Part shown: piece after piece, positions 1-37,925 of the stretch
Layout: every line of letters starts with the position of its first letter
Position numbering within the stretch: the stretch's first letter is position 1
Origin: Chara braunii
Lineage: Eukaryota; Plantae; Charophyceae
Assembly (NCBI GenBank): GCA_003427395.1
Contig: BFEA01000026.1
Location: 423,058 to 477,569 of the forward strand
Direction: 5' to 3'
DNA: 54,512 bases
Program-made: the position numbers and the translations under genes
Notes under the pieces: model-generated
The model's database searches: none
What the model was told of the DNA's origin: nothing
The model's input: the letters and a program-made list of their open reading frames with translations, nothing else

Positions 1-69
<69 letters not shown>

Positions 70-2590: not shown

Positions 2591-3112
2591 CTTCTTCGCC
2601 CTTCTATTCCTACTACTCCTCCTCTCCTCTCGTCTCCTCTACACTTCTTCAACTACATAACCCTTCTGCCTATCTGTCATGACAGTACCTATGCGCATCC
2701 TTGCGCGAAGAAGGAACCAGCAGTTCTCCATCGACTACCGGTACCGGCCACATTGCCGCGCGCGCCATTTCCCCGCCAGTTCCTCCATTTCTCCCGCCAA
2801 ACTGCTTCCCAACATCGCTTGCTTCTCCTCCTACTGCGTAGTTTCTTCTCTCTCACGCCCGCCTTCCCCGTTTCTTGTCCCCTTCCTCTCACCGCTCACC
2901 ACCGCGCTGGCTCTCCCTTCCCCTCCCTTCCCCTTTCTCGTCGTGAAACACTCCTTCTTGGTCGACTCTGGGCAGTACTATGGACATCCCATTCGACACG
3001 CGGAAGGCCTCTTACCCCCAATGTCAATTGCGTACAGCCTCTATTTGGGCCCTTCGGCGGCTGGCATTCCCTAAAAAAAAACCTCCCGTCCCCCACAAGA
3101 TACCCACCCACT

Positions 3113-4028
3113 CGCAGGACCCGGCAGACCCGGACGCCCCCCCCAAGGAAATCGGCCTGGACCAAAAAATCCAAGTCGTGACGGAATGGATAATTAAACA
3201 CTTGCAGGCCGAATTTCCCCACGAAGGTGAGCAATACTGGGATTGCTCCTATGTCGAACTTGTCACCCTCCTCAACAACAGCCCGACACTCAGGATGCGC
3301 TGTCCACTGGCCCGCCTGCTCATTTGACATGGGCAGAAGCGTTTCAACGCATACTTGCCGTAGCAAGAGGCCGCTTCCGTCCCCCTCCCACCAAGGACTC
3401 CCCCGCTCCTCGCCAGGACCCTCTAGCACAGGAAGGGCACACCCAGCCCGCCCCAACCGAGGAAAAGGAAAGCACGGGAGGCACGGGAAACATGGAAGGA
3501 CTAGATGAAGGACTGACCTCCCAAAGACTCAAGATTAGACAGCTCGTAGAGCGAGGTCTATTTGAAACGCCCCTATCCAAACAGGTGGGAGTTCTGGTGG
3601 CCCCTCTGAGGAAAACCGATGGGAAATGGGAGATAGGCCTTTACCCGATAGGGAAACACGGGGGCGTAACCTTACAAGGGTGGGAATTCTCGCCGAAGGA
3701 AGGAGAGGACGGGGACAAGGTTTTTACCGACCAAATGCGCACCTTTATCCCCTCACACTATGCCCCGGGCGCAAAAGCGGGAGTGCGGTTGCTTGGAACC
3801 AGCGACTATCAAATGGCCAACAACGACCTCTTCCTGCGTTTTGAAACCAACAAGACAGCCAACTTACATTGGTTTACCCACAATGCACTGGTGGATCTCC
3901 AATGTGCAAAAGTCAAAGCCAGCGAGTATTGGCCAGAGGATGATGTATGTAGGTGTCTGTGTAAGATGGTGAGGAAGAGGACTCTACTCCTGGACAGATG
4001 GGACGACAAGCCATGGCACACACTGTAG
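3113..4028 (+). pseudogene. LINE ORF1, C-terminal remnant (frameshifted)
   Basis: Open stretches (ORFs 2980-3327 and 3243-4028) lie directly upstream of the endonuclease and inside the TSD. Confidence 0.6.
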
Positions 4029-4087
4029 ATAAGGAATACCAATGGATGATTTAGAAACATTATACTGCAAGAACCCAGCATGGCAAA

Positions 4088-7000
4088 AATGCGTTATCGG
4101 TCGCCCTTAATTTACAATCTATCAATGTAAATGGTCTTCCGTCGAGCAAACCTGAAAAGCGTCAGGCCATCTGGGACCAACTTAGAGGAGTAGGAGGCAG
4201 ACGATGGCCGGACGTAACTTGCGTCCAGGAAACCCACCTACAAGACACCCCGGAGCATAACAGGGCACATAAGATGGTCTGGCCTCACACAGCTTTCAGA
4301 GCCCACGCACCTAGACCTGGTTCGGCAGGAGTAGCAATCTGGGTCCCTCCGGACTCCAGATTTCAGCCAGTTCACTTGGTCGTAGATGGGGACGAGGGAC
4401 GATGGGTATCGGTCCTCGGTATGCTGGAACTGGAGCTACTATGCATACTCTGTATTTACCCACCTAACACTGTCGGCGAACGAAGGAAATTTTTGGGGAA
4501 GCTGGCCACACAAGTACCGGAAGGCATCCCCCTAGTCATAGCAGGGGACTTTAATGCTACCCCTGACAGGACCTTGGACAGATGGAATGCCCAAGAATCC
4601 CCTTCCTTTGCCGCAATGGAAGATGAACGAATGATCGCCGAACTCTGTGATACACTTTCAATCTTCGACTCCTTTTGCCGATTACATCCTCAGGCGCGTT
4701 CCTTTACATGCGTAAGGGATAGCGACCTGGCACGCCTGTCCAAATCTAGGATTGACCTCATCCTTATCTCTAACGACCTAGAAGGTGCATTGCGCTGGTC
4801 ACTAATTCTCCCGCGAAGCCCGTACCCAGGTCTAGACCATAAGACATGTGGAATCATACTGACAACAAGGAAAAGGTCCGATCATGGCCCTGACTTTTAT
4901 AAGTTAAACACCTCCCTCCTTAAAGATTCAACCTTCACACAGATGATCCGTAGCGAATGGAACTTCTGGCGTCAACAAAAGCATCTGTTCGACTCACACC
5001 TTACATGGTTTAACAATGGACTAATCTATCTAGCAAAAAAATGCAAGGATCTTTCCAAAATCAAGGCAGCCCAACGACAACAGCACGAGATGTCAACCCA
5101 CAAAGAACTAATAATCCTGGAACAACAGGCAAATTCACAATCTCTCACTACCACCATCCAAGATATTAAGGACCGCCTTTTACAATACGCATTACATAGA
5201 TGACAAGGTATTAGAATTCGGGGAAAGATGACCAAATTTACTCAGGAAGCTACCATGGACACCCATTTCTTCTCCATGGCCACAGCACGGGCTAGACGTA
5301 CAGTCATCGAAGCCCTTTTTGACCCGAACAACGACAGAATCATAGCTACTGACACAACACACTGCACACTAATTACTAGGACCTTTTTCAAACAGCTATA
5401 CACATCTCAGATCCCGCGCTCTCAAAAGGAAAAAGGGATAGGGAACTGGAAGAGTTCTTAGCACCAATGGATCGCCGCCTCTCCCCATAACAGCAAGAAC
5501 AGTTGGAGGAAAATCTGTCTAAAAACGAAATATGGACAACACTCCTCCAAATGAGAGAGGAAAAAAAAAACGGCATAGACGGATTCCCCAAGGAATTTTG
5601 GGAAATCATGTGGCCAGAATTGAACTCGGACCTATGGGAGTATTATCAGGAGGTGTGGAATGCCGGGGAAATGGGATAAATTGTGGGTAAGGGGGTGCTA
5701 TCGCTGTTATACAAAAAAGGCGACAAAATGAACATTAGGAATTACAGACCTATCACTCTACTCACAGTAGTCTATAAGATGGTGGCCAAAGTGCTGGCAC
5801 ATCGTATGGCATCTGTCCTGGAGGATGTCATACACCCGGCTGAGACAGGGTTCATGACCGGAAGGAATATACAAGAAAATATCTTACTAGTTAATGAGGT
5901 GGGCGAACTAGCCCAACGGAATAAAGTTAACACGGCCATTATATTCATTGACTTCGAAAAAGCATACGACCACGTTGACTGGGAATTTCTGGACAAATGC
6001 TTGGAAAGAATGAACTTCGGACCAGTCTTCCGACGCTGGGTTAGGATTCTCCACCATAACGCCACCACCTGTGTGCAGGTCAACGGGTCGATAGCGCACC
6101 CCTTCGTGCTTCAGAGGTCTGTAAGACAAGGGGATCCCATTGCACCCTATCTGTTCTTGGTAATAATAGAAGCACTATCGGCCAACCTCAGGCATAATAA
6201 GAACCTCTCTCGCATCAAAATCACGAACATCCCGGAGGAGGCAATACCGATCTGCTCACTTTTCGCTGATGACCTCACCATAATGATGGAAGCGACAGAT
6301 CGTAACATGGAAGAAATCCAAGTTCTCATGGACCGGTTCTGTCGACTCTCCGATATGGTAGTTAATTGGGGGCAGAAGACGGTAGGATGGTGGATGCACC
6401 AGCAAGGAGGAAGGCCTCCTGAAAACCCGCGCATCACATGGCTACCCCTGGAAGACCCCTTGAGAGTGTTGGGAACCCTCATTACAGCAAAAGGGAAGTC
6501 GGCGACCAACGATGACTGGCTGACAGGACCAGTACAAGCCAAACTAAAATAATGGAATAAAAAGCACACATCGTTATTTGGGCGGGCCTTGGTCATTAAT
6601 AACGTGGTGTTGGCCACACTTTGGTACAAATCGATTATATGGCCCATGAGCGACGGGGGGCTTAGGTCCCTAAAACAGCAGCTAGCAGCTTTCATTTGGA
6701 GAGGGGACAGTATTAACCCCCACACAATTAGTCAAGTAGCTTGGGACTCAGTGATCCAACCCAAGACCAGAGGAGGACTAGGAATTGTGGACCCGGCCAC
6801 TCAATCCCAGTCCCTTACACTCCGTTGGCTTCAACACATTATCTTCTCTCCGTCCTCCCCCTGCCCCCCCATGGCTCTGGCGCAAATCGCTGCCCTAGCA
6901 CCGGAGCCCCCCCCGGAGACGGACCCTCTGGTATGGCTACAAGACAGATACTGGAGGCTTCCAAGGAAAGATAAGAATGGGAAACCCGTGAGCACACATT

Positions 7001-8575
7001 GGTTGCGCTTACTTCGCACATGGAGGAAGCTCCCGCCGCCCGACCGACCCAATCTGGATCGATGGGAAGAAATTTTCAGACAACCGCTGTTTGGGAATCG
7101 ACTGATTACGGATGCCTTGGGCCAGGTAAGATGCAGCTCATATGCCCCCTGGAAAGGTTGGGTTAAACATGGTGCTAGCAGAGTAGGGGATCTGTGGGAT
7201 ATAGAGGCAAGATGTTGGAAGAGTACAGAAAGGATGCGGGCATGGCTACGCTACTGCCATTTCACGGAATCGGCGCTAAACGAACTCATTGAAAGTTTTC
7301 CTCTCCAATGGTATAGCATTCTTCGAAAAGGGCCTCAATTGAGAGAAGGAGACTGGGTTTGCATGCCCAATCACAAGGAGGAGATAGGAGAAGTACACAT
7401 TGTAAGCCCAACACAGGCCCTAATTGAGATTTTATCCGTTCAAAAGGATGACACTCTACGGGGCAGCCAAGATCCTTTTATTTGGAAGGACAGATCGAAC
7501 ATATATCGCATCGGAGTTCTAGACAACGACAGAGGACGATGGGCCTATCGCCCAACAACCCCGATTGAGGATCTCCCCTTCAACCCCGACGAGTCGCATT
7601 GGTCCCAGGGAGCCCCGACTAGACAAGGGCCGACAAAACAGCTAACACTTTACAATCTAAAAACCAAATCAGCCTATCGTATGCTCCGTCCGAAGACTGC
7701 GGTAGACGGTTGAGGACAGGTGGCATCGACATATTAACGTGGACCGAGACTTGCTCAAGCCGATCCGGTGGTTTACTCAACTTAGAAATAGACCTGCTAA
7801 GATCTCGGCCCTTCAGTGGCAAATAGCACACCGATGCCTGCCGACAAACAACTGGTTGATAGATCACACCCGTTTGGAGCAGCAAGGTCGGGCATTGCCC
7901 TGGTGCCATAGTTGTCTCTTGGGTTACCCGGGGAGGAAAAGGGCCGAAACAATCGAACACATCTTCCTCCAATGCCCGACTTCGGTTTTGCTCTGGAGGG
8001 TTTGGGACAGGATCTGGCGACACATTGTCCCCTGTGCAGAGTGGCCATGGGAGTGGAGGGCCATATTACTAGGTCATTAACCCCCGATTCGGGGAGACAC
8101 ATTCAAGGAGAACATGTTTCATTTGGGCAGGCGGGCGGTCCTGTGGGTCATCTGGTGGAAACGTTGCATTTTGGAAATGGAAGGGGCACGGGTTGAAGAA
8201 GGAGAAGTCACAGAACAGTTACGCCTATTAGTCCAACATGAAATTGCTGCCCAGTGGAAGGCGGCCAGAGATAAACTTGACCAAATGAATTTATGGTCTG
8301 ACATCAACAGGATCATCTCCCGATTCAGTCAGGATTGGTTAGGAGGGGAAAGAAAAGGATGGGTGGAGGAGGTAAGATGGTCTGAGAATTGCCAGCAGGG
8401 AGGAGAGCTGCAAGAAGGACACTGGACGGAGATAGCAAGAGATTATCAGTTGATCTTCCATGAATGGACAAACCTCGATCCTGGCGAGAGGTTACGCCCG
8501 GCTCAAGAATTTGCAGACCCTTCCCCCCCCCACCCACTGGCACTAGAAGAGGTCCTCCCCCCATGCTCACAGTAA
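4088..8575 (+). pseudogene. LINE ORF2 (AP endonuclease, reverse transcriptase, zf-RVT), disrupted
   Basis: APE motifs SINVNG, QETH, GDFN, SRIDLI, LDH; RT motifs NYRPITLL, DFEKAYD, RQGDPIAPYLF, FADD; GGLG; CxxC...ETIEHIFLQC. Broken by in-frame stops (about 5201, 5488, 5677, 6550) and frameshifts (about 5430, 7700). Confidence 0.95.
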
Positions 8576-8831: not shown

Positions 8832-9165
8832 CAGATGGTGGTTGGATAAACAACACCAATATGGGACGCTGGACCCGGTTTCCAGCATTGGCAATGTACT
8901 GTCTGGTTCAGTTTTTTCGGTTACAAGTTCAGTCTAATGGTCAGCAGAGATGGATACACTGCAGGATTGGTTGGATGAACAACACTGATATGGGACGCTG
9001 GACCCGGTTCCCAGCAGTGGCGATGTATTGTCTGCCTCAGCCTTTCTGATAATGCCAAATAACTCCAAATATCAAGAGGCACCACATTGGTTGGATGAAC
9101 AACACAAATATGGGACGCTGGACCCGGTTTCCAACATTGGCAATGTACTGTCTTTCCCAGCTTTT
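8832..9165 (+). repeat. Three ~125-bp tandem units in the LINE 3' UTR, each carrying the GCTGGA-CCCGGTT-TCCAGC hairpin
   Basis: TGGTTGGAT(A/G)AACAACAC..ATATGGGACGCTGGACCCGGTT(T/C)CCA(G/A)CA.TGGC.ATGTA.TGTCT at about 8839, 8968 and 9088; further motif copies at about 9319 and 9388. Confidence 0.9.
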
Positions 9166-9677
9166 TTCAGATAGTTTCAAAATAACGAGGCGCCAGAAGG
9201 TGAGTAGGTGGATGGCAGGGGCTAGGGTTGGAGGAGGCTCCACTGGTGCCCCCCCGTGGGTCCCCCCCAACACCCGAGCCTGCTGCAAGATAGGTATGGT
9301 ATAGGGGATGGGATGGGAGGCTGGACCCAGTTTCCAGCGCAAAGGCGCCACTTTTAAAATGCACTGCTTTTTTACAGATGTATCTAAGGGACGCTGGACC
9401 CGGTTTCCAGCAGGTGTTGCTCCCCACCAATAGATGGAGCGGTCTGCCAGGCAAGCCTCAATCCCGGTGGTTCTCTTACCACCACTAGGATAGAGGCCTT
9501 GCATAAGGGCCTTCCCCTCCCAAAAAAAAAAAAAAAAAAAAAAAAAAGATACCCACCCACTATCTCCCATTTTCCAGGCCCTCCTAGTATGACCTTTTCC
9601 TATGTAGGCTCTTGTGCCCCTTTAGCCCCTCCACCCTGCAAACCCCCTTACTGCCCCCGTGGGTCCCCCCCAACACC

Positions 9678-9970
9678 CGAGAACACCAATCTCGTGTGGA
9701 GCCAAAGAGCAAAAGCTCACTCAATTTTGATTTCCAATACGAATCGAAAGTGTGCGAGCGTGGCCTATCGATCCTTTAGCGTTCCGGACTTGAAGCTAGA
9801 GGTATCCGAAAAGTTACCGCAAGGATAATTGGTCTGTGGCTGCCAAGCGTTCAGAACGACGTCGCTTTTTTATCCTTCGATGTCGACTTCACCAAGTTGG
9901 ATTGCACACCCACCTATCCCGAGCATCTAATTAGTGATGCGCATGATTGGACCAGTAAGATTCCCCCTCT
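9678..9970 (+). pseudogene. Degenerate, rearranged 25S/28S rRNA fragments
   Basis: 9678-9917 follows LSU domain V (AATCTCGTGTGG...GCGTGGCCTATCGATCCTTTAG...GAAAAGTTACC...GCCAAGCGTTCA...ATCCTTCGATGTCG...CACCAAG..TTGGATTG..CACCCAC). 9924-9966 follows the upstream CATCTAATTAGTGACGCGCATGAATGG...AGATTCCC segment. Confidence 0.9.
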
Positions 9971-13350: not shown

Positions 13351-13439
13351 TCCAGGCTCCAAGTGTTTGCCGCATTCTCATTGGTCTGTGGTAGATGTGT
13401 GACGACAATATTGCATTGTCATTGGTCCACTGCCACTAC

Positions 13440-13975
13440 TTGATGAAATTGGGCGGGGAAATAAGTGATTCTGAGACTTTTGTATCGGGCGACCTCGTTT
13501 CTCACGTCGGAATTAGTAGACAGTTAGTGTAGGGAGAGAAAGAAGAGAAAAACGGTGCGCGGAGGTGTAGCGATGGCAAAAACAGTTATGGTAGAAGGAA
13601 ATAAAACTGTAGCGCGTCCGTTCCTCCATGGAATCGGGCGGGGAAAGAGGCATTTTGGGGGTTCTGAGCTAGGGCGAATCTATTAGTAAGATCAGATTTG
13701 GGTAAAAGTCAATAGATTAAGAGATTAGTAAAGAAAGTGTTGCATGGAAGAAGGGCAGAGGTGAAGTGAACGAGAGGGAAAAGTCATGTATCTCGCCCGT
13801 TTCTTGATGGAATCGGGCGAGTAAGGAGGCTAACCTGATGTCTTTGACCACTGCGATCATGATGGCATCAATGGATTTCAGGTTAAGGGTAAGGTATGGA
13901 CAGTAGAGTGGTTTTTGGCTGCGCCTGGGGAAAGGGGTGATGTATCTCCCCGCGTTTTAGCGGGAGATTCATTCA
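13440..13975. repeat. Degenerate ~180-bp tandem repeat with small palindromes
   Basis: (G/A)AAT(C/T)GGGCG(G/A)G at about 13446, 13631 and 13810; hairpins CTCGCCCG...CGGGCGAG and ATCTCCC.GC...GCGGGAGAT. Confidence 0.5.
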
Positions 13976-16320
13976 CCTTTCACATAACGGGTGTGTAGGG
14001 GGGCGGAAACAAGTCGGGACGTGCATGGTTACTTGGCGAAGGCGCATCTGGCTCATGTTCCAGCGAAAGAATTATCCCCTCCCCTCCGCCTGTCAACGCG
14101 GTTTTGGGGGAGCTTGTCGTCACAGTTGCCATAGCAGCGCCCATCGAGATCTCGTTGGCCACCCTCAATTGAGTCTCGAAGACCCGCCTGGTCACCGTCC
14201 CCGAAGCGACCACCTTCTTGTTCGTCTGGGAGGGGGTTGCCCTCGTGTCTGCTCATCGTGGCCGCTACTGCGATCGTGATTGTTCCTCCTCGCAGCCGCT
14301 TGCGCGGCCTCACCACGCTTGCTCCTATAAAAGTCGATGAACCTGGTCACCGTTTGGAGGAAGATCAGCAGCTAAAATGAAGAGCGGCTATGAGTTGGGC
14401 GCGAGCAGGCTACGAGGGAGATAGGAGTAGATCTCACTGATCTCCTAATAGATTTCAGTACTGAAATCAACCAACATAAGTTTGAGGTATTGCAGTTAGT
14501 TTGCACTCGCCAACCTTGCGGATCGGATTCTGTAATGGTCGTTGCTGGTGGGGTACAGCATGTGCGGAATGTTCTGCGAATGTATCCTCTCGTATTGTAG
14601 CAGAAGGTACATGGGCATGTTGCATTGTCGACAGGTAAGGGAATGAGAACGCTTATCGCAGGCGTTCTACTAGCAGTCACGATCGGTATGGTCATGTGGT
14701 TCGTCTTAAGGGCTCACGCGACTGTGTTGTTGTCATGACTAAGCTAGTACTGCGAACGGAAGACTCATTCTGATTTAGCCCATCCGAGCGATCGGAAGGC
14801 GTGAAGTGAGCTGGGAGGTTGGAGATTTAGCCACCGATAGCGATGTTGATGAACATGATTGCACTGTTGAGGGTGGTCGCAGTATTGATTGATCCCGCTG
14901 CCACGATTCCGGTTATGCCTTATTATGGTAAGGACCAGGCTCATTACGACAATAAAAACTCCTCCGTTAAAGTTCGAGTGAACCCGGCCACGCTTGTGAC
15001 CAGCTGCGTTTTTTTTGCAGGCGGGCTGTTGTGTCGATAGTAAGGAGGAGGGAACGTGGTGACCACGTCATTTCATAGCATGGAGGAGGACTTGTGAAAT
15101 TACGAACTTTCCTAGTAGCTGCTGCATTGCTTATCTTGACGGAAATGGTGGACGCAGCAGGCCAAACGCGAAGGAGCAGGCTTACCAGCTGACTGAGGGG
15201 ACTGCCCATACAGTCAGGTGAAGCAGCAGAGGACGACAACAGGGTTGGGGGACTTGCCACTTAGCAGAAGTGCTGCATGTATCATCAACTGAAGTGGCGG
15301 AGCCTGCGAGCCAAAGGTCTGTAAGCTTACTTACTGGTCTCTATGTTATCCATCATTTGTTAGACCGGAAGAGTGAGGAGAAAGGTTGTGGGATTGCAGA
15401 TCTACCTGTTGGCTGGCAGACCGTCATCCCGTCAGCCTGCGCGGCAAGAAGACCAGCTGCAGAGATTACTGAACTACCGGCTGACGGAAGAGTTGCTCAG
15501 CCTGCTGTATCTGAGTAAAGAAAGGCGAGCCGCAAGGCTGACAACCCGCTAATACTCTGCTGATCGTATCATGCGACGCAGCTGAAGGCAGGCCGCAAGG
15601 AGTAGGTTTGGTCACAGGGCGGTGCGTTGTCCATCCTATTGAACGGAGTAGGGGAAGGAGAGCCAGGGGACTGCAGATCTACTTGTGATCAATGGGTTTC
15701 GGGTCACGAGCTCGCTAAGAGAATTGAGATCGTTGAAAGGGAGTCATCAGGGAGTCAGCAGTTGGTGCTTTGACTTCGGTTGACCAACGACTGTGTATCT
15801 TGGCTGCCATTGCGGGGCCCTCAGGCGCACAAAGGTTACAAGACCCTCTCCAGAGAGTTGAGTTTGTCCCTCTCCTGTATCTCGAGAGTCTGAAACCCCT
15901 TATCTTCTGCCCTTCTTACTCTCAGTCTAATCCTGGTTACGAGAGGAAGGCGGCAGGCGAAATTGCAACCTGTAGGACCGCAGCAAGACTCTGTAGGGAG
16001 TCAGCCCACCGATTGTGAGAGCTCTGCCGGAAATCAGGAGGAGTTATGGAAGCAGGGAACTGAGAGGTAATCATTGCTTTCCTTCTATAACCCCAGTATA
16101 ACCCTTATCTGTATTCCTTGATATGTTTTGACTGAGCATACTGCATGCACCCCTACTTTGACTTTTAGTTTGACTTTCAGGACACAACCCAGACTAAGTA
16201 AAAGAATGTATGCTCAATGTCAGTTTTAGTTTAATTGTCTGACTGAAAAGAAATTGTGGGATTGCATCTGGGGGAAGGATGTGAGGCACTATTGCTTCAA
16301 AGTTTGTTTGGGTCATTAAG

Positions 16321-16916
16321 GCTGGGAAGTCCCAATAAGTTTGGGGAGACCTAGTGCTGTGTTTAGTTCTGAATGTTCTGGAGGTTAGGAAGTCCCCATA
16401 AGTTTGGGGAGACCTAGTGATGTGAAATTGCATGGAGAGTTAGGCCATTCTATAAGTTTAGGTGGTCTGGTTGCTCTGACTTGTGAGGGTTAATTGTGAT
16501 TGGACTTTTCAGGAGCCAAGCACATTTTGTAAGTTCAGGTGGCTTGGTTGCCTTATCTACTTTGTGTTTCTATCAGTTTCTTTAGTTTCTGAACGAGGAG
16601 GTTTGAGCATGTTCCATAAGTTTGGGTGACTCAGCCTCTTCCTGCTTTGGCCTTGAGATAAATGAACCAGACTGAGGACCAAGACATGTTCCATAAGTTT
16701 GGGTGGTCTTGGTCCAATGCCTCGCACATGCTGGAACCCGAAGGTTATAATTTGGCTATACTTTATTACTATCTTATTTAATAACAGGCTAGTCAGACTA
16801 TTCTATAAGTTTAGGTAGTCTGACTATAGCTTATCACAATCTGAAGAAAGTATAACTGAGAGTAACTTGGGCCGACTGAGCATTGTTTCTAAGACGAATG
16901 GCTCAGTCCTACGCCC
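16321..16916 (+). other. Array of about 8 stem-loops with a conserved (A)TAAGTT(T) loop and divergent stems
   Basis: Loops at 16335, 16398, 16452, 16530, 16616, 16693 and 16805, plus a variant CTAAG at 16889. The stems pair on the + strand with G-U wobbles. Confidence 0.85.
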
Positions 16917-17519
16917 GCTTTGAAGATTAAGTTCGGAGAGATATATACAATCTGGCTACTAAACAGTTCAGGGCGACTAGGATGGCCTAGTCATATGCTC
17001 AAAGAAGATAAAAGTTGTTGTGCCCGAAATGCTAATTTCAGTTTTGGACTCGTTACCCATGACATGAAACTAGGGGTCCCCGTTAACCAAATAAAAACCC
17101 TAATTTTCAGACCACTTGCCATGCCATTTATAAAAAAACAAAGGGTCATTTAAATCAAATTTGCCATCAATTCATAGAGTGGAGACCATATTAACCGACG
17201 AAAAAAAAAAAAAAAAAAAGATTTATAATAAAAAACATACAAAACAATATTTTCATGAAATTCGCAAATATTTTAATTTTAGAAATCTTGAAAATTTTCA
17301 GAAATCTTAACAGAGGAAATTTCAATTCTCCAAATGAAATAAAATTTGACACACAGTAACAGAGGAAATTTCAATTTTCGAAATGACACAAAATTTGACA
17401 TACAACAACCTTGAACCAAACAAAAACAGACAATTTTTTTTTTTCTTCAAAATAATTTCAGCTTTGGACTCGTTACCCAGGGTCTGAAATTGAGGGTCCT
17501 CGATAACCATTTGTGACTA

Positions 17520-19255
17520 TATGTTGCGATACTCTTATCTACTTTACTCCACTCCCCTCCGCTCTACTTTTCTCTATTCTACTCTAGTACACTCGACTCT
17601 ACTCGACTTTACTCGACTCGACGCTACTCTACTCTACACTACACTACTTTACTCTACTTTGTCTTACTCTTTCTTACTCCACTCTCCGATATGCTACTAC
17701 TTTACAATACTTTATGTTACAATACTCTAATCTACTCAAGTTTTCTTTGCTCTACTCTACTCTACTCTTTCCTATTTTACTCTATTCTACTCGATTCTAC
17801 TTTACTGTACTCTATCACTGTACTCTACTCCAGGATACTCTACTCTATGATACTTTATGTTTCCTTATTCATCTCAAGTCTACTCTTGTCTACTCTTCTC
17901 TTCCCTACTGTACTCTACTTTACTTTACTCTACAATAATCTACCCTTCCCTACTTTTCTCGACTCTACTTTTTTTCACTTCTCTCTTCCATAAGCTTCTC
18001 TTCTCTACTCTACACTTCCTTGCTCTGCTCTGTTCTGCTATGGTCCACTCTACTCTACTCTACACTTCCCTACTCTACTCCACTCTACCCTACTCCACTC
18101 CACTCTACTCTACTTTACTTTACTCTCCTCCACTCCTCTCTGCTCCACTCCACTGTTTTACACACTACTCTACTTCATTCCACGCCACGCCACTCCACTC
18201 CACTCCAATTTGCTCAGCTCCACTCTCCTCCACTCCATTCCACTCCACTCCACTCTACTTCACTATACTCTCCTCGACTCAACGTTACTCCACACTTCAT
18301 TCTACTTCACTTTACTCCATTCGACTCGACTATATTCCACTAGACTCCACTCCACACCACTCTGTTCGACTCTTCTCCCGCTACTTCACTTCACTCTCCT
18401 CCATTCCATGTTACTCCACTCCACTCCATTCTACTCGAGTCCACTTCACTCCATTCGACTCAACGATATTCTACTAGACTCTACTCCACACCACTCCACT
18501 ACTCTACTCTACTCGACTCTTCTCCACCCGATTCTCCTCTACTCTACACCACTATACTCAACTCTACTATACTCTCAACTCTACTATACTTTGCTTTACT
18601 ATACTTTATTATAATCTAAACTACTTTGCTCTATTAGAGTCAGGTTGATCTCGTTTTGAGTATCGCTTTAATTTGTTTTAGAGCATAGGTCCATTTGAGG
18701 TACGCCCATCTTCTCTACTCTACTCCACTCGACTCTATTCTACTCGACTCGACGCGAATTCTATTGTACTTTATGCTACACTACTATAAGCTACGCTACT
18801 CTACTCTACTCTACTCTACTCTACTCTTTCCTATTTTACTCTACTGTACTTTTTTCTATTTTACTGTACTCTACTCGATTCGACTTTACTTTACTCTAAC
18901 CTACTCTACTCTACTCTAGGATACTGTATTGTTTACTCTATGATACTTTATGCTTCCCTACTCTTCTCCACTCTACTATTTTCTACTCTTCTTTTTCCTA
19001 AGTTTTTCTTCCCTACTCTACTCTACTCTAGGATACTCTACTTTACTCTACAATACTCTATGCTGCCCTACTCTTTTCGACTCTACTTTTTTTCTCTTTT
19101 CTCTTCCCTACTCTTCTTTACTTTACGCTCCCTGCTCTGCTCTACTCTACTTTATGCTTCCCTACTCCACTCTACTATATTATACTCCACTGTACTCCAT
19201 TGTACTCCACTCTACTTTACTATACTCTCCTCCACTCCTCTTTGCTCCACTCCCA
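17520..19255. repeat. Degenerate pentamer satellite (CTACT/CCACT)n
   Basis: About 1.7 kb of CTACT, CCACT and CGACT units, interrupted by a ~75-bp unrelated stretch at about 18635-18710. Confidence 0.95.
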
Positions 19256-22556: not shown

Positions 22557-22676
22557 AGTATGGTTGTATCTATGGGACGCTGGACCCGGTTTCCAGCAGG
22601 TGTTGCTCCCCACCAGTAGATGGAAGCCTTGTCTGGTTAAAAAAAAACAAAACAAAAAAAACAAACAAACAAACAA
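22557..22676 (+). mobile_element. Very short retroposed copy of the LINE 3' structural module
   Basis: TSD ACGATAAGGGCAAA at 22543-22556 and 22677-22690. Contains GGGACGCTGGACCCGGTTTCCAGCAGGTGTTGCTCCCCACCAGTAGATGGA, nearly identical to 9388-9438, then an A/(CAAA)n tail. Confidence 0.9.
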
Positions 22677-24023: not shown

Positions 24024-24099
24024 CGGAGCCTACGACCGGACTTGAACCGGAGACCTTCCCCTTTCCACGACAGTGCTCTACCAGCTGAGCTACGTTGGC
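24024..24099 (-). pseudogene. tRNA-like pseudogene resembling bacterial/organellar tRNA-Thr(GGU)
   Basis: GCCAACG acceptor stem (1 mismatch), GCTC/GAGC D-stem, CCGG-TTCAAGT-CCGG T-arm. The anticodon stem is broken and the loop reads GGA. Confidence 0.65.
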
Positions 24100-36900: not shown

Positions 36901-37449
36901 GTTTATGATGAAACTAATTGTAAATGTAAGCAAGGATTGAAATTCTGCTGTCCTTATCAAAGAAGTTTTGTCACTCCTTGCCACCAAACCCCAACTGCAA
37001 TCTCTGATAATAGTATCATAATACACAGAGTGGCCTTTAACCATTCCCACTCTGTCACCCAACTCTCGGTTCCCGCATGCGTGCAGTGCGCACCACCACT
37101 TTCCAAAGATCTCATTCAGGAAGTGAAGTTGTTGAAGAGATTGTGAAGGCATTTGTTGGAGCTATGTTTGCATTTACAATCGGGGGGGCTTTGAGGGAGC
37201 TACCGCTTGCAGGCAATGACCATGCTACCTTATCATGATCCTGGCCTGCCATCATGTCCCCATCTGTAGAATCAATGGTATATACCATCATGAATCTGAT
37301 CCTGAAAGCACGCCAGGTGGATGCTCAGCTAGCAGCACATAATTCTAGTTCTGTCAGTTTGGAGCTCAGCTGACCCTGTATGCGAAAGTTCTACCAGCTG
37401 TCTGGCTGACGTATTGTGCATCGGGGGGCTGTGTGGATGGATGATGCAG

Positions 37450-37747
37450 ATAGTGATATAAGCATCAATGACAGAGCGGTTTCGCGACATCATGCAGATA
37501 TTGTTGTGGGGCCTCTGGGTCCTCTGCCTGACCCTGCCGTCTCAGGAACGGCCGTGGATAGAACGAAAGCAATGGCGGATTGGATATCTATATGGCGGCC
37601 ATCCATTAAGGTGAAGGATGTTTCGAAGTTTGGGACCCTAGTTTGTGACCGATCGGGCACAAAGAAGCAATCTGAGACTCCTGATAGATCTGCTGAGCTG
37701 AATGAAGGTGATTTGGTCGTATTTCTCCATTGCAAAGTGCATTTCAG
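37450..37747 (+). CDS. NBS1: NBS1 exon, FHA core
   Basis: DSDISINDRAVSRHHADI...IKVKDVSKFGT...LNEGDLVVF...FR carries the FHA motifs SRxHA and DxSKxGT. Acceptor TGCAG|, donor AG|GTGAGT, phase 1 to 2. Confidence 0.92.
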
Positions 37748-37925
37748 GTGAGTTGGTAGAGTTCCCATGTTATTTGGCGGTGTTATGATTCTGGCTATTC
37801 CGAAGTGCAAATACACAACGAAAGACAATGGTCTGGAGCATTGTCTTCTTCTGCTAGGCCTGCCGCTACTCAAGGGCTATCCTAAGCTACGTGGCCTACA
37901 TACTACCACTACTACTTGAGTGCTA

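Follow-up and report, generated by a model that had tools for sequence, protein, structure and literature searches.

An array of eight hairpins with a common UAAG loop was identified in a high-copy repeat of Chara braunii, within a window of 54,512 nt (the whole stretch of DNA analysed; contig BFEA01000026.1, positions 423,058 to 477,569, forward strand). The array is real and was probably selected as folded RNA. It is apparently undescribed: no description of it was found in the open literature, although the host element could well have an entry in some repeat library. Our reading of its role is tentative and stands close to an even chance, namely that the array is a multivalent docking site in the + strand RNA of a probable Ty3/gypsy-type element, most likely for Gag.

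All eight units folded on the + strand with z-scores between -1.96 and -4.52 relative to shuffles, and the array as a whole gave z-scores of -4.30 (+ strand) and -3.17 (- strand). The five units quoted in an earlier, sequence-only reading of this DNA were present where it had placed them, and its estimate of eight stem-loops about 55-110 nt apart agrees with measured loop-to-loop distances of 54-112 nt. The conserved UAAGUU loop that it described holds for seven of the eight units and fails in U8, which carries CUAAG. Within 16305-16925 (621 nt), TAAGTT occurs seven times, against a mean of 0.39 and a maximum of 5 in 5000 dinucleotide shuffles, none of which reached seven; any hexamer at all reached seven copies in 7 of 1000 shuffles. 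The motif is not enriched across the window (25 observed, 26.4 expected), so the signal is local to the array. When the window's 259 TAAG-centred folds were ranked, all eight units lay in the top 14. The sequence at 15800-16300 was not unusually structured (fold z +1.18). Coordinates of the units and of the surrounding features are given in the table.

Features of the hairpin array and its host repeat, in coordinates of the window
Feature	Position	Strand	Remarks
U1 hairpin	16321..16355	+	loop UAAGUU; purine-rich internal loop; z -2.48
U2 hairpin	16384..16418	+	tandem duplicate of U1 (91% over 43 nt)
U3 hairpin	16438..16473	+	U bulged three pairs beneath the loop; 88% like U7
U4 hairpin	16514..16549	+	family-rare variant, judged by low DNA depth
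U5 hairpin	16597..16639	+	21-nt core in common with U6
U6 hairpin	16676..16715	+	highest stability of all units; outer stem of 10 bp and an internal loop; RNA -21.1, z -4.19
U7 hairpin	16790..16826	+	15 bp, single bulged U; z -4.52
U8 hairpin	16874..16908	+	tip shortened to CUAAG; z -3.59
Candidate intron	16067..16180	+	GT..AG, pyrimidine-rich end
Most abundant segment, AG to GT	15927..16066	+	exon in two C. braunii gene models
Conserved high-copy core of host repeat	15800..17025	+	from depth; loose ends at 15800 and 17025
Low-copy, CpG-rich upstream part	13940..15800	+	depth mostly 9-600, graded; TATAAA at 14326

The stems had been described as freely varying, which proved wrong. A 20-nt core around the loop averages 70% identity in U1-U7 (range 45-95%), and the outer arms are the sole variable part of the stem (38-40% identity in U1-U7, ungapped). 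Neither are the first two units the only plain duplicates, because U3 and U7 match over 32 nt at 88% and U5 and U6 share an identical 21-mer. A bulged U about 3 bp below the loop, reported as a frequent feature, appears in two of the eight minimum-energy folds (U3 and U7) and not in the rest; what the minimum-energy folds have in general beneath the tip is an asymmetric bulge or internal loop. The supposed ninth copy at 14460-14496 (+) has the core letters, but it folds no better than shuffles (z +0.48) and is absent from the 15 model matches with E up to 5. In the window, a model built from the eight units scored high on those eight alone, as it must by construction. Just 3' of the array, 16975-16992 (+) forms another hairpin, with 7 bp perfectly paired and a four-letter loop unlike that of the units; one of its arms resembles the outer stem of U1/U2.

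The composition of the stems points to the strand on which they are formed. Arms were aligned in a strand-neutral manner, with G-U and A-C given equal score. Across the eight units, the opposed positions comprised 92 Watson-Crick, 20 G-U, no A-C, and 6 other combinations, while the same procedure applied to control hairpin-like windows elsewhere (n = 46) yielded 78 G-U and 61 A-C (20:0 vs. 78:61, Fisher p = 3e-5). Since some wobbles were inherited between units, the comparison was repeated with just 10 wobbles taken as independent, and the bias was retained (p = 0.003-0.02); against local composition, p was 4e-4. The earlier statement that the mismatches are G-U wobbles on the + strand is thereby borne out. 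RNA folding energies preferred the + strand in all eight units, e.g. -15.2 (+) vs. -7.8 (-) kcal/mol for U1 and -11.4 (+) vs. -2.6 (-) for U3. Two-sided changes were seen in eight of nine consensus pairs among the eight units and were matched by one of 500 shuffles; this figure is not a p-value, and as the units are kin it is supporting rather than decisive. A control alignment slid by +1 paired 67% of the cells, compared with 81% for the true register.

We considered whether the folded molecule might be DNA, i.e. a single-stranded signal read either by an HUH enzyme or by the tyrosine recombinase of a DIRS/Ngaro element, and regard this as quite improbable. Two points count in favor of such a signal: G-T is tolerated better than A-C in DNA too, and C. 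braunii is reported to contain DIRS and Ngaro elements (10.1101/835561). However, folding of the units as DNA was weak (-1.3 to -9.0) and nearly symmetric between the strands; the long-lived single strand of reverse transcription is the minus cDNA, on which these wobbles are A-C; and none of the ORFs scanned in 13.4-17.1 kb encodes a recombinase or an HUH enzyme.

Variation among genomic copies was assessed with 5379 contigs of DNA run X2 over 16305-16925. With 3 mixed bins set aside, the 13 unit bins had a median contig depth of 72,723 and the 14 spacer bins one of 21,618 (p = 0.015), with peaks at U3 (125,294), U6 (181,644, the highest), and U8 (97,208); U4 was the exception with about 5,000. 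These peaks may come in part from units of other arrays that settle on the best-fitting unit. Of 125 variants in the array, 40 were listed, and after dropping 7 with a DNA share under 0.1, 33 were left. Units held 11 of these 33 listed variants and no transversion, spacers 22 variants and 8 transversions (p = 0.03); the scarcity of variants in units by itself gave p = 0.07. None of the 40 listed variants fell in a loop, an outcome with a chance probability of about 0.05. Seven of the nine paired-site variants with a DNA share of at least 0.1 (eight from the X2 array table and one from the wider-region table, all unlinked) exchange a Watson-Crick pair for G-U or the reverse when read in the minimum-energy register. 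Variants at 16334 and 16603 break the minimum-energy pair, yet they fit a register shifted by one base, which is that of a sister unit or of the neutral alignment. Two rare variants among the seven dropped (16410 and 16799) break a pair; they account for under 1% in DNA and are common in contigs presumed to be RNA. Contig joints demonstrated that unit number and unit order vary among genomic copies, with 16478>16319, 16474>16377, and 16824>16714 as examples of joints that mark differing order.

Such shuffling of units between copies, together with the clear duplication kinship of U1/U2, U3/U7, and U5/U6, would also be expected of a neutral by-product, in which a palindromic monomer was amplified in tandem and its stems were re-perfected by template switching. 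The + strand is G/T-rich, and the depth that units may in part owe to other arrays fits this explanation as well. It is nevertheless improbable: mutation of double-stranded DNA predicts G-U to be about as frequent as A-C, as opposed to the 20:0 observed; spacers, although duplicated together with the units, have diverged more quickly and are where the transversions lie; and sparing of the loops is not expected. Selection on a single-stranded + strand structure is supported both inside the array and across genomic copies, in line with the earlier proposal of a structure formed by + strand RNA or single-stranded DNA.

The host repeat was found in four DNA runs, all from one sample. Summed contig depth over 15800-17059 ranged from 13,500 to 149,000, compared with a depth of 6-15 for contigs identical to this locus. 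Summed depth itself is no copy number; the depth ratios suggest about 10^4 copies of 15940-16079 and 2-6 x 10^3 over the array bins. Upstream of the core, depth drops stepwise to near single copy, and the ratio of observed to expected CpG is 0.82-0.97 as compared with 0.26-0.33 in the core. Similarity to the window persists in the loose ends at 15800. The element therefore likely extends upstream in a fast-diverging form, and we infer that 13940..15800 is probably this fast-diverging portion of the same element. Other copies continue past 17025 with a different sequence; the present copy is therefore cut or interrupted there, and the continuation was found nowhere else in the window. A small element (17033-17509) is inserted where the array-bearing copy ends. 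It contains direct repeats of 57 nt (82% alike) as well as inverted repeats of 17 nt, and it is followed by a 1.7-kb TACTC array (17530-19237). Further repeated motifs were noted in the 5' part of the region. A GGGATTGCA-like motif at 14486, 15390, 15667, and 16258 occurs in low-copy and high-copy parts alike and is possibly a protein-binding site in DNA or RNA. A 44-nt motif is present three times at intervals of about 180 nt (13423-13466, 13608-13651, and 13787-13830), with at least one strong hairpin (z -3.9), and a related hairpin lies at 13940-13970; copy depth in this region is moderate.

The element had previously been left as an unclassified mobile element. It is a mobile-type repeat at high copy number, and its class can be narrowed: on indirect evidence, it probably belongs to the LTR elements of Ty3/gypsy type. 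This assignment draws on the most abundant segment. The sequence at 15920-16060 matches two C. braunii gene models, with 83% identity to CBR_g30386 (47 residues) and 64% to CBR_g36417 (50 residues). In P0001, the only protein returned by the region search, residues 360-480 resemble retrotransposon Gag capsid clusters with feature scores of 0.90-0.93 and TM values of 0.53-0.60, at low shared-feature counts (107-141 of 256) and with structure scores beneath the bar for naming. In P0002, the segment lies directly 5' of a region with zinc-knuckle/DUF4100 leads (scores 0.79-0.84, below 0.9), and a reverse transcriptase (RT) fragment is also present. Both gene models that use the segment thus contain Gag-like pieces, one before it and one after it. 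Gag on either side is the pattern that would be expected of a terminal repeat, in models that are often chimeric; P0001 and P0002 are probably chimeric gene models of a transposon-dense genome. The other reading frame of 15921-16064 was without protein match. Matches at 35% identity to P0003 and P0004, which are repetitive or PKD proteins, were discarded as chance, and none of 15 candidate relatives of P0002 in viral contigs was confirmed. Within the window there was no second copy of the repeat, and the only trace of LTR landmarks was a TG with a weak stretch of purines at 13927-13942. None of 49 ORFs scanned in 13.4-17.1 kb reached the Pfam cut-off. Placement of the array in a 3' UTR, as had been suggested, consequently lacks support, given the missing Pfam domains and an adjoining candidate intron for which none of the listed joints indicated splicing.

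Among the LTR elements of C. braunii, Gypsy forms the main family, and DIRS and Ngaro elements also occur in this species (10.1101/835561). The Penelope-like elements Chlamys and PLE-X of C. braunii resemble the present host as high-copy retroelements, some of them with a hammerhead near the 3' end (PMC8557442, in the part available). They differ in that the array motifs are absent from their consensus records and that the array has no hammerhead match. A curated C. braunii Penelope-like element was rejected as the host on these grounds: four 12-13-letter motifs from the array and the exon gave no match in eight C. braunii consensus records from the accessible material of that study. Shorter motifs of 9 and 10 letters gave 3 and 1 matches in its whole supplement, and one displayed match lies outside the C. 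braunii records.

Transcription was examined in three poly(A) RNA runs (X5, X6, and X7). In X7, 45 reads covered the array and the first mates were nearly confined to the - strand, where depth reached 12.4 as against 2 on the + strand; under the usual stranded protocol, this indicates + strand RNA. None of the 45 reads was 99% alike to this copy, so they stem from other copies. X5 agreed with + strand RNA at a depth of 0.06-2.5 over the array and was strongest over 15800-16079. X6 displayed an opposite or unstranded pattern over the array, with first mates at 42-66 (+) vs. 14-43 (-). The expected + strand expression was accordingly seen in X7 and X5, at low depth and from other copies, and was mixed in X6. 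Contigs presumed to be RNA, 581-1763 nt long and from two runs of two further studies, contained arrays about 84% alike.

For the intron proposed upstream of the array (GAG/GTAATC to TTTCAG/), the GT at 16067 and the AG at 16180 are present, but no splice joint was found among the 15 joints listed of 217. The neighborhood bears on a second interpretation of the array, in which the RNA structure recruits a host RNA-binding protein or snRNP that controls how the element RNA is exported, localised, spliced, or polyadenylated. All observations on structure and conservation are equally compatible with this interpretation. The array begins about 250 nt after the GT donor and 140 nt after the AG acceptor, in X5 the RNA depth declines over 16051-16091, from about 40 to 4, and the loops AUAAGU and GUAAGU (U4) bear what we take to be a resemblance to the 5' splice-site consensus. 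Against it, this likeness is limited to 5-6 letters, pairing would be impeded by the inner stem, and DNA depth drops about 8-fold at the same place, so that the RNA drop need not be splicing. Recruitment of a host factor is a possibility that we consider unlikely, though a serious one.

Regular arrays of short hairpins with separate spacers can also be read as substrates for an RNase III-type or other nuclease, or for self-cleavage, that would free small RNAs. This was among the roles suggested earlier, and we found no support for it. Rfam contained no match to the array at gathering score, and 13400-17100 gave one chance-level match (E 7.5), in agreement with the view that the array is not a described RNA family. 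In particular, no ribozyme or miRNA family appeared, whether at gathering score or with E relaxed to 10; neither a hammerhead nor any other small self-cleaving ribozyme was matched in Rfam, and the units are simple hairpins. With 11-16 bp per unit, the interrupted stems stay short of the 21-nt duplex of a plant miRNA precursor; bulged stems of this length are too short for a 21-nt Dicer duplex. It is the loop rather than an arm that is conserved. Taken together, processing into small RNAs is very improbable. The poly(A) reads, which are not suited to judging this point, displayed no pile-ups of molecule starts or ends.

Multivalent protein binding, also put forward in the sequence-only reading, remains the best interpretation, with a partner that is so far a candidate. 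A fixed loop and core, an exchangeable outer stem, and variable number and order of units give the array the appearance of a multivalent protein site. In the RNA of a retroelement, Gag would be the obvious partner present in many copies. In the mechanism that we propose, each unit would present the UAAG(UU) loop and the inner core to one protein site, and the outer stem would need only to pair. Repetition of units would provide avidity, and single units would therefore be free to be gained, lost, or shuffled. The array would sit in the terminal repeat or leader of the LTR element, 3' of a possible splice donor as packaging regions do, and would be bound by the element's own Gag during RNA selection and packaging. 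Structurally, the array has the properties looked for in a packaging signal, i.e. repeated stem-loops with a common loop and variable stems in sense RNA.

Repeated fixed-loop hairpins that bind proteins multivalently are known from the Xist A-repeat and from CsrB/RsmZ. These are single-locus regulatory RNAs of the host, while the Chara array is part of a repeat in thousands of copies and has no Rfam-level relation to them. Among viruses, the degenerate AxxA stem-loops of satellite tobacco necrosis virus (STNV) are the closest in design: several short stem-loops with a common loop motif and variable stems, for which binding by many coat-protein copies was proposed (PMC6475782, available in part). 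The Chara array differs in its six-letter loop and 20-nt conserved core, its compact non-coding tandem arrangement, and its location in a nuclear retroelement. In vivo data described in the same text weigh against the view that AxxA motifs are genuine signals for packaging (PMC6475782). The Psi signals of MMTV (PMC8096270) and Ty1 (PMC8396678) share with the array clustered + strand stem-loops near a splice donor (a possible one in Chara); those of Psi are bound by Gag. According to the accessible sections of both sources, they consist of a small number of stem-loops, neither identical nor redundant, whose position 5' of gag or within it is fixed; the Chara array is a redundant same-loop array with a variable number of units, and is seen here without a primer-binding site (PBS) or gag. 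More generally, the LTR and retroviral packaging signals treated in those sections are sets of differing stem-loops, not same-loop arrays (PMC8096270; PMC8396678). For Ty1, the portion available describes the mechanism of RNA selection as unclear and Psi as lacking a precise definition (PMC8396678). The available portions of PMC11341676 and PMC11630846 contained nothing on Chara repeats.

How the Gag of an LTR retrotransposon chooses its own RNA is still an open question, on which the array bears. A doubtful but far-reaching extension of our reading is that one of Chara's most abundant retroelements recognises its own RNA via a modular, expandable same-loop array that is read by Gag. If true, the recognition code could be read directly from the natural variants of the unit, of which a single genome would offer tens of thousands. 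A same-loop array in thousands of copies amounts to a natural mutagenesis library for the needs of loop, core, and stem. If the partner were a host protein, the array would reveal one way in which a major family of repeats manages its RNA, in an alga with giant cells that stands near the land plants. The surprise is limited by the fact that repeated loops on variable stems are already known from RNA viruses and regulatory RNAs.

Pattern scans of other sequence collections were also performed. In metagenome contigs, they returned 13 loci without BLASTN similarity and without a model match below E 0.1, which were rejected as chance or unrelated tandem repeats. One unrelated metagenome contig (L003, 588-1176) carries a 72-nt tandem repeat whose unit folds around a ATAAGTTTAGGT tip; its model score is just 13-14 bits, and it has no DNA similarity to the Chara region. 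Three patterns applied to viral contigs gave 0, 0, and 13 loci, and the latter were set aside as single matches that scored only through preselection by the core pattern. Scans of prokaryote genomes returned 0 loci.

Elsewhere in the window, scans for bacterial promoters and terminators and for tRNAs were uninformative. A degraded L1-type LINE occupies 2947-8575 (+), with a PF03372 endonuclease (E 1.6e-13) and a PF00078 RT (E 2.3e-31) in separate frames. A motif starting with TATGGGACGCTGGACCCGG occurs in four copies within 8860-9410 and again near 22575 (22575-22610); this repeat region is possibly a LINE 3' end or a SINE. Beside it, about 9735-9885 presumably represents a fragment of large-subunit rRNA. 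The sole Rfam match in the window at gathering score is tRNA-like (24027-24099, -; 40 bits); ARAGORN does not call it, and it may be a SINE head or a pseudogene. Finally, an exon-like frame at 37410-37751 (+) contains an FHA domain (E 5.3e-5) and is probably part of a host gene, possibly NBS1-like, with long repeat-filled introns.
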